From Fidelibacterota bacterium TCS55 (GTDB lineage Bacteria > Fidelibacterota > Marinisomatia > Marinisomatales > TCS55), in NCBI GenBank assembly GCA_001577025.1, contig LSCF01000001.1:7609-71608 (forward strand): a DNA stretch of 64,000 nucleotides, given 5' to 3'. The notes beneath the pieces were generated by a model. That model did no database searches and was not told the DNA's origin. It worked only from the letters and a program-made list of their open reading frames with translations. Below, piece by piece: positions 2,849 to 7,614 of this stretch. Every line of letters begins with the position of its first letter. The first letter of the stretch is position 1. The position numbers were made by a program, and so were the translations under genes.

Positions 2849-4342
2849 TTAACTTTCAGCTAGATATTGTTCGCGTGAATAGCGGAACTTTACAATTGCC
2901 TTATATATGGAATTGGCAATGGCTTGCCTATATTTTGGATTTCGGAGATTTTTCTCTTCATTCCGGTTTGTTAAAAATCCAGCTTCAATAAGCACATTCG
3001 GCATGCTTGCCCCGATGAGTACATGGAAACCTGCCTGTTTTACACCGCGATTTTTGGATTTGATTTTTTTCGCCATTTCCTCTTGAATCATGGCTGCCAA
3101 TTCTTCGCTTTCTTTCATATATACACTTTGCGCCATGGTGGCCAAAATCAAATTTTCACCCGAAAGATCTTCATACTTGTTCTTGGATCGATCTTCCAAT
3201 TTTATAGCTTCATTCTCTCTGGATGCCACTTCAATGGCATCTTCCGTTTTCCCTGGTCGAAGCAAATAAGTTTCATATCCATATGCCGTTTTATTTGGGT
3301 TTGAGTTTAAATGAATACTTAAAAACATTTTTCCATTGGATTCATTGGCAATTTTTGTTCGTTTCCACAAGGGTATGAATACATCTTCCTCCCGAGTATA
3401 AATCACTTTCAATTTTGTATTTTTCTCTAATAAAAGGCCCACCCGCTTGACAATATCCAACGCGAGGTCTTTTTCTTTTGTTCCCCTTCTGCCAATAGTC
3501 CCAGGGTCTTTGCCCCCATGCCCCGCATCCAATACAATGGTATCCAATTTCCATCGATCTTTTACTTTTTTGATTCGCGCCACACTATTATCCATAGGTG
3601 TGCGAAGAGATACTACAATTTCACTGGGATCTTTACTTTGATATAATTCGTGATTGATCACTTTGGTTCGCATCTGAAATGCCAACTGTGCCGATTCACC
3701 CAATTGATCGGCCGCAACACTTTTAATGACGCCCCGCGTGTCGCTTCTTCTGATTTCTGTGGTGTCGACCAACGCCCCTGCAACTGTGATGTAAAACCAA
3801 CCATTTTCGTGAAAGAATGAACTGATATTTCCATCCGGAAAATTATTGCGCGTCTGAATTCTTAAAATGGTTCCATTGGCTTTTTGGGATATGTTCACGC
3901 CCATAATGGTGAATGATTTAATATCAATATCCAACACCATACGGCGAGGATCGTATTTTATTCCGGGCAATGTCGTTCGTTTTAAAATATCAAAAAAAGA
4001 TTCAGCAGGCAAAAAGATATCATTTCCGGCCTGAATCGCGTAGGCTGGCATTTGATATACTTTTTCATCAATGAGAATAAAACTGCTATTCCCTGAAATT
4101 TTAATCCGATGGTCACCAATATAAAGGACCATCTTTCCTCGTGCTTCATTCACAAAAGGTTCCCGCTTCGCTAATATACGAGAAACATCCCGGGTAGATA
4201 CGAAGGTTCCTCGAAGCCTATCCAGTGTTTCTATATCATCCATAGAGTTATTAACCCGATTCACAACTCGTATTGATCCGCCCATCAAGGATGACAGGAT
4301 TAAAATAAATATGAAAAGTTTAGTGCAGATGCGATGAATCAT
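2849..4342 (-). CDS. N-acetylmuramoyl-L-alanine amidase (Amidase_3, AmiC-like) with an N-terminal non-catalytic domain
   Basis: Catalytic module VLDAGHGGKDPGTIG...LSIHLNS...ETYLL...HVLIGASMPNVLIEAGFLTN. I chose the start at Met89 of the tracked ORF (MIHRICTKLFIFILILSSLMGG, signal-like), because the longer ORF would overlap the upstream gene by 221 nt. Confidence 0.85.
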   Translation of the reverse strand: MIHRICTKLFIFILILSSLMGGSIRVVNRVNNSMDDIETLDRLRGTFVSTRDVSRILAKREPFVNEARGKMVLYIGDHRIKISGNSSFILIDEKVYQMPAYAIQAGNDIFLPAESFFDILKRTTLPGIKYDPRRMVLDIDIKSFTIMGVNISQKANGTILRIQTRNNFPDGNISSFFHENGWFYITVAGALVDTTEIRRSDTRGVIKSVAADQLGESAQLAFQMRTKVINHELYQSKDPSEIVVSLRTPMDNSVARIKKVKDRWKLDTIVLDAGHGGKDPGTIGRRGTKEKDLALDIVKRVGLLLEKNTKLKVIYTREEDVFIPLWKRTKIANESNGKMFLSIHLNSNPNKTAYGYETYLLRPGKTEDAIEVASRENEAIKLEDRSKNKYEDLSGENLILATMAQSVYMKESEELAAMIQEEMAKKIKSKNRGVKQAGFHVLIGASMPNVLIEAGFLTNRNEEKNLRNPKYRQAIANSIYKAIVKFRYSREQYLAES

Positions 4343-4385: not shown

Positions 4386-6074
4386 TCATAAGTTTGCTTG
4401 AAATAATAACCCGCCCTGAACAATTGGGGATGCATTGAAAGAAAAACCAGTAAAATGTGTTTTGATTCGAATGCCCATCCGTACATCCAGCGATGGAAGA
4501 AACAAAAGTTTAAATCCCGGCCCATGCCCTGATTTTGTAAATAACCGCGAATGCATTTCTCCCGGGAGGTTGACATCCCAAAAGTAAATGCGTGAGTTAT
4601 AATCATCTACCTTTGCCATCATCCAATCCAATTCTAATTGGTATTTGGGGTGATAAAATGTGAATCGAAAATCAATTCCTTTCCCATAAGTGAAATCTTT
4701 AACGCCAGACTTGACCCATTGGGCCTTTAGTTGAGACCGCCATAATTTGGATCCATATTTATGTTCTAAGCGAAAACTTTCCTTTCTCAACTCATCTTCA
4801 AAAAGTCTTGGACCATATATCAGCATTTCATCCTCATCTTTTTGATCAAATTTTAATTGGCCGATAATATGGTGACGACCAAATCTGGATTCTGTTCTGA
4901 CGCCTAGTACCTGTTTATTTATATTTTTTACAACATGAAAAGCCCAATCAGCATACACCATAATTCGTGTGTGATTTACTCTGAATGTACCGCCTTGAAA
5001 GATGCCTTTTTCAGAAACAACCCGCCCCTGCCATGCGGCCATTGGATTGCTTGTTTCACCCAATGATCCATTTCTCAAGTCCCGAAAATGAATCACATAT
5101 TGAAATGGCTTCTCTTCATATTGAAATGCCAAAACAAATGATGGGGTACCGATTCCGTGGGATGCTTCAGCTGCCAACTCAATTTTTCCTTTTTCAATGC
5201 CGCCAAAAATAGATTGCGTCTTTTCGGAGACAACCATCCCCCATTTATTGGAAGCATTTTCCTGCATATAAATACCCATGCCTCCATAATGATTTATACC
5301 GCCGCGGCCATTCACCTCACCTATTGAAATTAAGATCGAGTGATTATTGATTGTTTTTTTGTATGCACCTCCGCGAATTCTATTGGTGGATGTTGCGCTA
5401 TTATATCCCCTCATTCTAGCATCGGTCGTGGCGCCTTTTGATATAGTGCTAAATCCCCGCCTTGCAGGAAATGAGCGCCCTGCATTCAACCCAAATCCGT
5501 AAGCAATGGACTGATCTCCAATAATCCATAATGACGATTTATTAGCCGATCCAAAATAAACACTTCCATCATTGGCGATATGTTGCTCATATTTATTCCG
5601 AACACTTAGAATACCCGTTTCAAAACCTTTCATATAAGATTTTCCATGCCATCGATATCGTGTATCATCAGATATTGCAGATAGTTGCTTCATGACAATT
5701 TTTGGATAAATCCCCTCATTTTCATTTAATGCATTGATTATCAGCTTCAACACTGATGACATCTCCTTTGCCTCTCTTAAATATGATTCATCATTTTGAT
5801 TCAGTGCCTGTTTAATTAAATGGTAATCCGAAGCTGATAATATAGATAGTGATTGTAAATCCTGGAGGGCAATTACATCTATCCCGGACGTTCTGGACAG
5901 AAGATCATCAATTAAGATGATTTCATCTTCATGGATGTCTTCTGATTCTTCCTGAGGAATTAATCCAAAGATGTCTTCATGAAATTGGGCTGATACAGGT
6001 TCACTGCCTCCTAAAAGGAAAATGAAACTCCATCCAATGAGACGGCCCCAGTTCTGGGTGATTTGCCAATGCAT
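4386..6074 (-). CDS. Secreted protein of unknown function, probably an outer-membrane beta-barrel, with an acidic, helix-hairpin-helix-like N-terminal region
   Basis: 562 aa. Signal peptide GRLIGWSFIFLLGGSEPVSAQ. The C-terminal two thirds are rich in alternating Gly/aromatic strands and end ...GGLLFQANL. No in-frame alternative start exists downstream of 6074, so it overlaps the upstream gene by 74 nt. Confidence 0.6.
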   Translation of the reverse strand: MHWQITQNWGRLIGWSFIFLLGGSEPVSAQFHEDIFGLIPQEESEDIHEDEIILIDDLLSRTSGIDVIALQDLQSLSILSASDYHLIKQALNQNDESYLREAKEMSSVLKLIINALNENEGIYPKIVMKQLSAISDDTRYRWHGKSYMKGFETGILSVRNKYEQHIANDGSVYFGSANKSSLWIIGDQSIAYGFGLNAGRSFPARRGFSTISKGATTDARMRGYNSATSTNRIRGGAYKKTINNHSILISIGEVNGRGGINHYGGMGIYMQENASNKWGMVVSEKTQSIFGGIEKGKIELAAEASHGIGTPSFVLAFQYEEKPFQYVIHFRDLRNGSLGETSNPMAAWQGRVVSEKGIFQGGTFRVNHTRIMVYADWAFHVVKNINKQVLGVRTESRFGRHHIIGQLKFDQKDEDEMLIYGPRLFEDELRKESFRLEHKYGSKLWRSQLKAQWVKSGVKDFTYGKGIDFRFTFYHPKYQLELDWMMAKVDDYNSRIYFWDVNLPGEMHSRLFTKSGHGPGFKLLFLPSLDVRMGIRIKTHFTGFSFNASPIVQGGLLFQANL

Positions 6075-6822
6075 AATTTATATTTATTGAATAAATTTTT
6101 AGTCCGATCGCGCCAGTCATTTGACCTGTATTCGATATGTAACCTGTTTGAATCTGAAGCCATGGTTTTGGCTGAATACTAAATCCTGACTTTATTTGAC
6201 TTGAATAATCCGTATCCTGTTCCCATTCGAGTAATACAGTTACCGTGCGAATGGGTTGAAATACTATTGTAGATATAATTAATTGAGGTAATGCATCATT
6301 CGATTGCCCAATGGTAGGACCATTTATATTATGGAGTATGGTCCCCCACTTAATTTGATTCGTGACTTGAATGTGCCAAGACAAGGATGTCCCTAAAGAT
6401 TGAGCAGCCCCATAACCGGGAATTGACAGTGCATAAAGATTGGTGGATATTCCAATACCCATTCGATTTTTAATTTTATGCCCGTATCCCATCGAAAATA
6501 CGGATTCTCGATATTGTTTTGTGCCAAATGTCCGTAATCCAATGGCCATGCCATTCCCCTTTATTGGAAATGCTGCCGCAATACTATGGTGAGTCAATTG
6601 GCGCATGTTGAATTTCTGTCCCGACAATAGGGACACCTGAAGATTGTTTTGTTTTGCTAATGAGGCTGGATCCATAAATGAACCCGCCGGGTTTGAAAAA
6701 ATATTATAATAGGATAAACCGAGCCCCACATTTAATGGCGGTTGCGTTAGGTGTTCGAATGACGCCGACAGAGTCCCTGTCGCATAAATAGATAGGGTGA
6801 TATATAACTGTATATAATTCAA
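6001..6822 (-). CDS. PorV/PorQ-like (FadL-fold) outer-membrane beta-barrel protein; start uncertain
   Basis: NPAG motif (YYNIFSNPAGSFMDPASLA), alternating beta-strand pattern and aromatic C-terminal region (WMEFHFPF). The tracked start at 6870 is a TTG lying inside a terminator hairpin. TTG at 6822 gives MNYIQLYITLSIYATGTLSA, which is signal-like. No ATG with a signal peptide is available. Confidence 0.6.
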   Translation of the reverse strand: MNYIQLYITLSIYATGTLSASFEHLTQPPLNVGLGLSYYNIFSNPAGSFMDPASLAKQNNLQVSLLSGQKFNMRQLTHHSIAAAFPIKGNGMAIGLRTFGTKQYRESVFSMGYGHKIKNRMGIGISTNLYALSIPGYGAAQSLGTSLSWHIQVTNQIKWGTILHNINGPTIGQSNDALPQLIISTIVFQPIRTVTVLLEWEQDTDYSSQIKSGFSIQPKPWLQIQTGYISNTGQMTGAIGLKIYSININYALANHPELGPSHWMEFHFPFRRQ

Positions 6823-6830
6823 ATCATATG

Positions 6831-6862
6831 GAAACAAAAACGCCCCGCATTTCTGCGGGGCG
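6831..6862 (-). terminator. Rho-independent terminator after the 70-aa gene
   Basis: Perfect 9-bp GC-rich stem cgccccgca/tgcggggcg (6841..6849 / 6854..6862) with a 4-nt loop. On the minus strand it is followed by TTTTTGTTT. Confidence 0.8.
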
Positions 6863-6885
6863 TCCGTCAACTTATTTTTTGGTAC

Positions 6886-7098
6886 TTATTTTTTATACCA
6901 AAATACGATGAGCATCAATGCAAGCAAGCCAGCAAATCCGGCGTCGCCGAATTTACTCATTAAGTCGCCTATACCTGCGATGACACCAAAGTAGTCGTCA
7001 AAGAGAATGCCGACCACGATGCCGAGGACAACCAGTCCTTTTAAAAGACTAGTTACTTCTCCGATAAACGAGGTTACGGCTTCAAAGGCCTTATTCAT
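6886..7098 (-). CDS. Small hydrophobic two-helix protein (70 aa), paralogue A, unknown family
   Basis: AGGAGA SD upstream of the ATG. Two hydrophobic segments (LVVLGIVVGILF; FAGLLALMLIVFWY). Shares the GD..(G/A)GFAGLLAL motif with the neighbouring 69-aa ORF. Has its own terminator. Confidence 0.7.
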   Translation of the reverse strand: MNKAFEAVTSFIGEVTSLLKGLVVLGIVVGILFDDYFGVIAGIGDLMSKFGDAGFAGLLALMLIVFWYKK

Positions 7099-7126
7099 TT
7101 GTTATCTCCTAGGATTATTAAAGCAG

Positions 7127-7150
7127 AAAGGGGCCCAAAAGGGCCCCTTT
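7127..7150 (-). terminator. Rho-independent terminator between the two small genes
   Basis: Perfect 10-bp stem aaaggggccc/gggccccttt with a 4-nt loop, followed on the minus strand by the T-rich tract ctgcttt. Confidence 0.7.
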
Positions 7151-7160
7151 ATTCTACTGG

Positions 7161-7370
7161 TTAACCTGCGAAAGATACAAATATTAACAAGGCCAATAGA
7201 CCGGCGAATCCACCATCTAGGAAGGATTCTACCAAGTCAACAATTCCGCCGATGGGATCAAACCCAGTCGAGTAAAGGATGTTCACAAATACAAACATCA
7301 CAATAAGTGCTTTAATTAAGCCAACTACGGAATTGGCAATACCCTGTACGGTTGAAGTAAAATCAGCCAT
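7161..7370 (-). CDS. Small hydrophobic two-helix protein (69 aa), paralogue B, unknown family
   Basis: GGAGGAA SD upstream of the ATG. Segments LIVMFVFVNILY and FAGLLALLIFVSF. Same architecture as 6886..7098. Confidence 0.7.
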   Translation of the reverse strand: MADFTSTVQGIANSVVGLIKALIVMFVFVNILYSTGFDPIGGIVDLVESFLDGGFAGLLALLIFVSFAG

Positions 7371-7402
7371 TAGGTTCCTCCTTGGTTAGGTTTCAATTGA
7401 AC

Positions 7403-7432
7403 AAAAAAGGGGGCAGGTATCCCTTGCCCCCT
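7403..7432 (-). terminator. Terminator-like hairpin in the 5' leader of the small-gene pair (orphan terminator or attenuator)
   Basis: Minus-strand sequence agggggcaagggatacctgccccc followed by TTTTTTGTT. No minus-strand gene lies upstream of it, because eno starts on the plus strand at 7636. Confidence 0.5.
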
Positions 7433-7614
7433 TCTGGTTCAATTCTTTCGCGTTTCGAGTATGTGGTTATCTGTTCCACTATCATTTCTATCACTCGAAT
7501 TTAAACACAAAATAGAATTAATCAATAATTTTTGAATAAAGTCATTTTTTCAACCTTTTCTCTTCGTGAATCACCCAATAAGTGCCTAAAATCTAGCTTA
7601 TATTTCATAAATGA

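Follow-up and report, generated by a model that had tools for sequence, protein, structure and literature searches.

A conserved pair of small two-helix hydrophobic protein genes in Marinimicrobia and its single-copy relatives in uncultured marine phages

Two small adjacent genes in a 64,000-nucleotide stretch of Fidelibacterota bacterium TCS55 (GenBank assembly GCA_001577025.1, contig LSCF01000001.1, positions 7,609 to 71,608; the whole stretch is hereafter called the window) raise the question of what the hydrophobic proteins that they encode are and what they do for the cell. The upstream gene, A (7161..7370, minus strand), encodes 69 amino acids (aa), with Asn30 in helix 1, the motif GFAGLLAL in helix 2, and a non-basic C terminus; the downstream gene, B (6886..7098, minus strand), encodes 70 aa, with G26xxxG30 in helix 1, the same motif in its second helix, and the residues WYKK at its C terminus. 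Both products are predicted helical hairpins. We tentatively read the pair as an abundant inner-membrane hetero-oligomer whose role in the envelope would resemble that of a holin or viroporin, and of which phages would carry a one-subunit version. No description of the family was found in the literature searched. New here are the exact two-copy rule (41 of 41 genomes), a pattern at residue 30, a leader hairpin common to host and phage copies, a TATAAATA box upstream of phage copies, the holin and wall-enzyme contexts of minor phage types, and the fold of the barrel protein encoded downstream.

Both open reading frames (ORFs) were present where the original prediction, made from the sequence alone, had put them, and they were paralogues as it had proposed, with proteins that aligned without gaps at 43% identity (E 6e-12). 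The window's genes were compared with those of two same-genus genomes: A differed by 24 and 22 synonymous and 0 and 2 non-synonymous changes, and B by 19 and 19 synonymous and 1 and 8 non-synonymous changes. The resulting ratios of non-synonymous to synonymous rates (dN/dS) were 0 to 0.09 and, judged from these counts, purifying selection on both genes is strong. The base composition of the pair was ordinary for the window's genome. Spurious, unconserved ORFs, the outcome named beforehand as the one that would undo the prediction, were excluded by the low dN/dS together with retention of the pair in 41 genomes of the phylum. Products this small and hydrophobic might also suggest the toxin of a type I toxin-antitoxin system or a leaderless bacteriocin, but the strong selection, the hundreds of orthologues, and the core, vertical inheritance described below speak against these ideas as they do against spurious ORFs, and no immunity, export, or antisense partner was seen at the locus. 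We regard this whole group of explanations as highly improbable.

An exhaustive profile search of 1.84 billion representative proteins returned only 211 matches at E ≤0.001. A word-based search yielded 223 clusters, some present on hundreds of contigs and on contigs of up to 642 kb, and all of the clusters with a named source were labelled Marinimicrobia, Neomarinimicrobiota, or Fidelibacterota. Phylogenetic distribution, a check that had been suggested at the outset, was mapped over 151 genomes spread across the phylum. The family was found in 41 of them, every one with exactly two adjacent copies in the order A then B. Within the window's order, 29 of 30 genomes had it; the other members of the class added 7 of 8, and genomes outside the class 5 of 113, all 5 in one genus. 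No third copy was found in the window's own genome, and the pair was kept in genomes of 0.8 to 1.1 Mb. In the family tree, the upstream (A) and downstream (B) copies fell, throughout the class, into two distinct clades with good support (98/95 and 99/97), which argues for an old duplication with the A-then-B order fixed; a third clade of pairs (loci L008, L009, and L042 to L044) had its own A/B split. By its distribution and its tree, the pair is core and vertically inherited.

Two side observations concern the edges of the family. The profile match to A ran over one TAA in genomes G024, G035, G087, G143, and G018 (four of about 1 Mb), where A is probably C-terminally shorter than the profile. 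A single-copy cellular member of 78 aa was present at L047 (6001-6237, on a 133-kb contig) among pilM, hisS, and methylmalonyl-CoA mutase genes; judged from this locus, the family may reach beyond Marinimicrobia.

The two-helix, hydrophobic layout that had been read from the translations was reproduced by structure prediction: the AlphaFold (AF2) model consisted of two long helices (residues 2-32 and 36-69), with moderate confidence (pLDDT 72). Both helices were amphipathic in their first half and hydrophobic in their second (18-33 and 54-68), and the hydrophobic stretches were short (14-16 residues). The N terminus read as polar and amphipathic, with the first hydrophobic stretch beginning at residue 18. 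The loop was acidic (net charge, -2.2 to -2.5), Lys20 stood at the start of helix 1, and B ended in KK with A lacking a basic tail. This charge pattern points to cytoplasmic location of both termini and to absence of a signal peptide, that is, to a predicted N-in/C-in topology. G54 and G57 were invariant in all groups, and A60 and L61 were nearly so; no acidic residue was found at helix 2 positions 54-57, 60, 61, 67, or 68 in any group. Position 30 in helix 1 separated the groups: Asn in 19 of 20 A copies, Gly in 20 of 20 B copies, Asp in 8 of 10 copies of the third (sister) clade, and Glu in all 55 phage copies, which also retained the Gly26 of B. Read at these residues, one phage protein joins features that are split in the host between A and B, a pattern that fits a hetero-oligomer in the host and a homo-oligomer in the phage.

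To which known family might such hairpins belong? The original prediction could not assign one, and that judgment held: no meaningful match to the family was found in Pfam, NCBIfam, PHROGs, PADLOC, or PDB sequences, and Foldseek of the hairpin model against PDB gave 0 matches. A Pfam scan of 59 diverse members gave no family matched by more than one of them, and the anti-phage defence profiles of PADLOC matched neither host nor phage members. Against PHROGs, the two window proteins had chance-level matches only, to families of unknown function, and none of three phage members tested had a match at E ≤0.01.

Three likenesses had been proposed, to VirB2/TrbC-type pilins, class II holins, and proteolipids. 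A pilin, extracted from the membrane into a fibre, would agree with the mature size of VirB2/TrbC and F-type pilins and with their order of amphipathic N terminus, helix, loop, and helix, and one of the 59 members reached TrbC (PF04956) at E 0.054, the window proteins giving no match. The A/B proteins are predicted to lack a signal peptide, however, and their loop is acidic, not basic, which with the KK terminus of B predicts the opposite topology. VirB4 (PF03135) was absent from 21 genomes including the window's (a control genome was matched), and no secretion genes lay nearby. We consider the pilin reading, for which the original likeness did not survive these searches, the least credible of those weighed here. 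The proteolipid likeness fared no better in its literal form. Like the F/V-ATPase c subunit and the Pmp3/YqaE (UPF0057) proteins, the A/B proteins are small two-helix hairpins and are probably oligomeric and abundant, but none of the 59 members matched the c subunit (PF00137) or, at E ≤0.1, Pmp3/YqaE (PF01679). They also differ from the c subunit in having no carboxylate in the C-terminal helix at the sampled positions, in their opposite predicted topology, and in their location outside any atp operon.

The mechanosensitive channel MscL (PF01741) likewise offered a resemblance of plan (an N-terminal amphipathic helix, a Gly-rich helix 1, a periplasmic loop, helix 2, and a basic cluster), but the A/B proteins are half its length, and profile-profile comparison by hhalign with an alignment of 7 same-phylum MscL sequences gave a probability of 0.45%. 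MscL was missing from all pair-bearing genomes sampled and from most pair-less genomes as well, so this apparent complementarity is uninformative. In the phylum sample, MscL was absent from the entire class that holds the window.

The class II holin likeness stood in part, as the nearest analogy in predicted topology and in the surroundings of some phage copies. Class II holins and pinholins (S21 of phage 21), XhlA/XhlB, and BhlA/BhlB share with the A/B proteins a length of about 70 aa, two (here predicted) membrane helices, a predicted N-in/C-in topology, a basic C terminus, glycine-rich helix packing faces, and tandem small genes, and some phage members of the family lie beside holin and wall-enzyme genes downstream of TATAAATA. 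Homology to holin families did not stand, there being no sequence or profile similarity (Phage_holin_Dp1 and XhlA were each matched by one of the 59 members, at E >0.02). The basic tail of B is only two residues long, the A/B genes are core, vertically inherited, and apparently highly expressed, and most phage copies lie outside lysis cassettes.

The sequences around the genes carried exceptional expression signals, in agreement with the claim that both genes have a consensus Shine-Dalgarno (SD) sequence. On the minus strand, AAGGAGG (7377..7383) stood 6 nucleotides (nt) before the ATG of A, and AGGAGA, within (T)AGGAGA at 7105..7111, stood 7 nt before that of B. The background was taken from a crude gene set of the window's 1.72-Mb genome (ORFs of ≥100 aa): the complete AAGGAGG preceded only about 0.7% of these ORFs, an SD-like motif was missing from 68%, and the remaining AAGGAGG genes mostly encoded secreted or envelope proteins. 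Three GC hairpins bounded the genes, all on the minus strand. The leader hairpin (GGGGGCAAGG..CCTGCCCCC then TTTTTTG; 7400..7436) ended 27 nt before the ATG of A (-26.3 kcal/mol, z -4.9), an A-B intergenic hairpin (AAAGGGGCCC-TTTT-GGGCCCCTTT; 7122..7158) ended about 23 nt before the ATG of B (-25.4 kcal/mol, z -4.8), and an intrinsic-terminator-like hairpin followed by TTTTTGTTT lay after B (6828..6865, with the hairpin at 6838-6865; 12 pairs, 8 GC; z -4.6). All three fell between -24 and -26 kcal/mol, with z of -4.6 to -4.9 and 0 of 200 shuffles as stable. By a strict definition, the entire 1.72-Mb genome held 32 terminator-like hairpins, and only 8 of 1447 ORFs had one that ended 12-40 nt before the start codon.

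Each gene had been said to be followed by a perfect hairpin and a T-tract. The hairpins were confirmed (z about -4.7), and so were the clean T-tracts 3' of the leader and post-B hairpins, but the T-tract after A was interrupted (TTTCTGCTTT). Across 25 loci, the post-B hairpin was strong in nearly all, with a clear T-tract in less than half; the A-B hairpin was present in most, usually without a T-tract, and was missing where the spacer was <40 nt. In at least 9 of the 25, an automated scan found a hairpin whose end lay 15-31 nt upstream of the A start codon, and by eye a leader hairpin, often weaker and slightly farther upstream, was seen in most main-lineage loci. The hairpin sequences were unrelated, both among the three in the window and between genomes, and the positions were retained, which argues for maintained features rather than leftovers of a duplication. 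The idea of a duplicated gene-plus-terminator module was therefore abandoned, given the age of the A and B clades, the lack of common hairpin sequence, and the irregular A-B hairpin.

Upstream of A, the gene eno was divergent in the window and at L025 and L040, so the leader hairpin cannot serve to terminate eno. Alignment of the upstream regions of 6 related genomes revealed a promoter-like block of TTGA-type hexamers followed by TTTAAATT (7498..7553, minus strand, some 110-180 nt before the A start codon), within which a promoter scan placed TTGAAA-17-AATTAT at 7553..7525; transcription of A would start from this block. Between it and the leader hairpin lay a leader box, AAACCACATAC (7459..7469, minus strand), invariant in 6 of 6 relatives amid varying flanks. 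One window ORF read through the leader hairpin, but neither its frame nor its start codon was conserved in the relatives, which makes a leader peptide or a leader-peptide attenuator unlikely. The leader hairpin might act in attenuation, in stabilising the message, or in insulation. With an SD sequence in the top 0.7% and a message bounded by hairpins, the claim of strong, insulated expression was upheld at the level of signals; from these, high expression would follow, and A and B would be very abundant in the cell.

Relatives of the pair were also found in viruses. At least 487 viral contigs in IMG/VR encoded one, in single copy (pattern scan), and 82 phage loci were read in detail. In 66 of the 82, the relative was of one 73-aa type. 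Its gene stood alone, on the opposite strand from the genes around it; those genes were shared with the gp25 (baseplate) region of L006, a myovirus-like contig. TATAAATA, which is the late-promoter consensus of T4-type phages, lay about 85 nt upstream of the member in 56 of the 66 main-type loci (background, 1 per 3.8 kb). The phage leader folded stably in 65 of 66 loci, with a hairpin and T-tract in the 12 inspected, and the gene was followed by a strong, often two-way terminator; with its leader hairpin and its own terminator, the phage cassette mirrors that of the host. The phage clade was not nested in the host A or B clades, and tblastn with three different members found nothing in 50,697 deposited phage genomes. 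As an observation apart, the IMG/VR contigs L063 to L130 represent uncultured phages with myovirus-type baseplate genes, carry the member at about 4001-4222, and have no relative among deposited phage genomes; the common gene family hints at Marinimicrobia as their hosts.

Some minor phage types had contexts that recall lysis. At L049, a gene for a DUF5675/Tlde1-like wall-enzyme candidate came directly before the member and one for a PHROG 3427 holin (E 1.6e-24) directly after it. At L006 it directly preceded a PHROG 34682 holin-family gene, at L068 it preceded what by eye is a look-alike of that gene, and at L045 it preceded a gene for a 61-aa two-helix protein. An outer-membrane-barrel-like gene was directly upstream of the member at L006, L052, L055, and L056 (254-267 aa) and at L057, L058, and L061 (141 aa, weak OMP_b-brl match); no sequence similarity was found between the phage barrel-like genes and the host barrel genes described below. 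On the side, the phage proteins encoded immediately ahead of the member in two groups of phages (L006, 6171-6974; L055 to L058 and L061) had a signal peptide and a barrel-type C terminus (..SYSF, ..GFGLKF). The full order of genes at L049 (3768-6626) was a 363-aa outer-membrane-barrel-like protein, an 89-aa membrane-anchor/coiled-coil protein, a thioredoxin-like lipoprotein, the DUF5675/Tlde1-like protein, the member, and the PHROG 3427 holin. From its gene content this run looks like an unusual lysis cassette, in which the DUF5675/Tlde1-like protein may be the endolysin.

The neighbourhood of the cellular pair is rich in envelope genes, and of the two outer-membrane barrel genes and the cell-wall amidase gene that had been recognised next to it, one barrel gene and the amidase gene were borne out. 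Directly downstream, on the minus strand, lay a gene for a 273-aa outer-membrane beta-barrel protein (6001..6822), whose 14-strand AF2 model (pLDDT 90.1) resembled PorV (8gl6_F, TMq 0.74), FadL (0.71-0.72), and OmpG (E 9e-9) by Foldseek; PorV belongs to the type IX secretion system. It was followed, on the same strand, by a conserved gene for a 562-aa secreted protein (4386..6074), which is the syntenic partner of the barrel in most of the order's genomes and had no match in Pfam, NCBIfam, or PDB sequences, and by an AmiC-type N-acetylmuramoyl-L-alanine amidase gene (2849..4342; Amidase_3, 5.5e-54). The amidase ORF extended to 4606, and relatives aligned only from residue 76-110 onward; ATG 4342 is the probable start. 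In most genomes of the order, the pair was followed by the barrel gene, a gene for a protein of about 600 aa, Amidase_3, murI, and a Mur ligase gene. Lipopolysaccharide (LPS) and polysaccharide genes lay upstream. An observation on the barrel gene itself is that none of its possible ATG starts would yield a signal peptide; the best start is TTG 6822, 16 nt past the terminator and with no SD sequence, and its expression probably relies on read-through of the post-B terminator. Its orthologues had signal peptides ending ..A|FEH.

Of 21 main-lineage loci, 13 had the amidase after the pair, and in 3 (L003, L038, and L040) it came directly after it; here the adjacency of pair and amidase had outlasted loss of the two intervening genes. 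At L026, the pair preceded genes for two small outer-membrane-barrel-like proteins and at L029 one for a 131-aa protein of like appearance, the likeness at both loci being a signal peptide and a C-terminal pattern only. At L041 to L043, yajC-def-fmt-rsmB lay downstream of the pair, and in further lineages the genes there were unrelated. Outer-membrane-barrel-like genes thus adjoined the family in three host and three phage lineages, and no partner gene was constant across lineages.

These neighbours bear on two alternatives. In the first, A and B would be accessory subunits of a known membrane machine (respiratory, transport, secretion, such as type IX, or cell-division), encoded apart because an excess of them is required. 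This is the position of many small hairpin proteins, and the envelope setting (LPS and polysaccharide genes, the PorV-like barrel, amidase, murI, and Mur ligase), like the yajC-def-fmt genes downstream in other lineages, would suit such a role. What such a role lacks is a partner constant across lineages; moreover, the unit is bracketed transcriptionally by hairpins, and phages carry the gene without a partner complex. A rhodopsin was excluded as partner by its presence in 6 of the 151 genomes against 41 with the pair. (In the same sample, rhodopsin was almost confined to one genus of about 1-Mb genomes.) We consider an accessory role unlikely.

In the second, the phage copies would be true holins or antiholins, and the cellular pair a domesticated two-component gate for the amidase, acting in autolysis, daughter-cell separation, or vesicle release. 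The modelled hairpin with its distribution of charge would be that of a class II holin, the flanks of the member at L049, L006, and (by eye) L068 include holin-type or candidate wall-enzyme genes, TATAAATA upstream matches a T4 late-promoter consensus, and the pair stays next to the amidase at L003, L038, and L040. Yet the amidase has, by eye, an N-terminal signal sequence of its own, the C terminus of B is just KK with no long charged tail, signals for very high constitutive expression fit poorly with a holin, only one order shows the amidase link, and the majority of phage copies lie outside lysis cassettes. Domestication of a holin in this strict sense is, in our estimate, improbable too.

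The reading that we favour, with the caution already stated, is broader. The strict pairing, the complementary residues of A and B, the face of small, invariant residues on helix 2, and the expression signals together point to an abundant hetero-oligomer, and a holin- or viroporin-like role is suggested by the ionisable residue of the phage copies, their late-type promoter, their holin and wall-enzyme neighbours, and the amidase and barrel neighbours of the cellular pair. A and B would be co-expressed, very abundant subunits of one hetero-oligomer of the cytoplasmic membrane, each subunit a helical hairpin with both ends in the cytoplasm and the short acidic loop in the periplasm. Insertion into the membrane would probably proceed without a signal peptide (YidC-type). 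Subunits would pack through the invariant helix 2 face G54-x-x-G57-x-x-A60 and through the polar position of helix 1 (Asn, Gly, Asp, or Glu), and the assembly would be a ring- or pore-like "proteolipid" akin to a holin or viroporin. Its work might be envelope housekeeping, such as controlled permeability, charge leak, or access control for wall-acting enzymes. The one-subunit version that phages carry behind TATAAATA could then take over or perturb this host function late in infection. The p7 protein of hepatitis C virus (HCV), a 63-aa viroporin hairpin that forms hexamers or heptamers, offers a parallel, as a virus-encoded hairpin of about 70 aa with an ionisable or polar residue in a membrane helix (here Glu30, in 55 of 55 phage copies); the parallel is one of analogy only, with no homology, and the A/B family differs in having a cellular pair of paralogues.

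Several results weigh against this favoured reading. No homology to holin, channel, or proteolipid families was found in Pfam, NCBIfam, PHROGs, PDB, or Foldseek searches, and confidence in the monomer model was only moderate (pLDDT 72). A lethal hole-former is unlikely as a core, highly expressed gene, so the host complex would need to be benign. In 66 of the 82 phage loci, the member was a lone gene outside a lysis cassette, and these last two points make up the chief objection. The amidase link was restricted to one order and may therefore be inherited synteny, and the amidase and the barrel orthologues have, by eye, ordinary N-terminal signal peptides and would need no holin. Abundance, moreover, is read from sequence signals only.

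A third alternative takes up much of this. A and B might conduct nothing and, being abundant, might set the order, stiffness, curvature, or stability of the cytoplasmic membrane or tie it to the wall; the phage copies would then keep the host membrane intact until lysis. Phage supply of a host-type membrane function has a precedent in cyanophages, which supply hli and psbA. There too a small, highly expressed, multi-copy membrane family of the host is mirrored in phages, but the A/B proteins have no pigment-binding motif or rhodopsin link, and their phage clade is not nested in the host clades. A structural role would fit a core pair, kept by vertical descent down to genomes of about 1 Mb, with very strong expression signals, helices that turn from amphipathic to hydrophobic midway and whose hydrophobic stretches are short (14-16 residues), and a main phage type that is a lone, separately transcribed unit. 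It leaves the invariant Glu of the phage copies and the Asp of the sister clade in helix 1 unexplained, as well as the repeated adjacency to holin genes, and there is no positive evidence for it. We hold it to be possible, if doubtful.

The holin- or viroporin-like hetero-oligomer can also be put in a bolder form, which we offer as speculation. The A/B pair would found a new class of hetero-oligomeric, ion-conducting proteolipids of the inner membrane, part of the core gene set of pelagic Marinimicrobia. Uncultured marine myoviruses, as a large group, and other phages would have made of this fold a one-subunit viroporin or holin with Glu in helix 1, and host and virus would have kept the expression cassette in common, from leader hairpin and strong ribosome site to terminator.

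Few bacteria are more abundant in dark and low-oxygen ocean waters than the Marinimicrobia (SAR406), of which none is known to be in culture. Since the A/B pair is kept in genomes of 0.8-1.1 Mb, has some of the strongest expression signals in its genome, and recurs on phage contigs by the hundred, it probably makes up a major, and still unnamed, component of the cell envelope of these bacteria. Its function, once known, would aid the annotation of Marinimicrobia genomes, and a new kind of membrane assembly built from small subunits might come to light. Provided that the phage copies follow the host family, they are a possible marker for host assignment in a large group of uncultured marine phages, and the leader hairpin common to host and phage copies is a defined target for the study of gene expression in the phylum.

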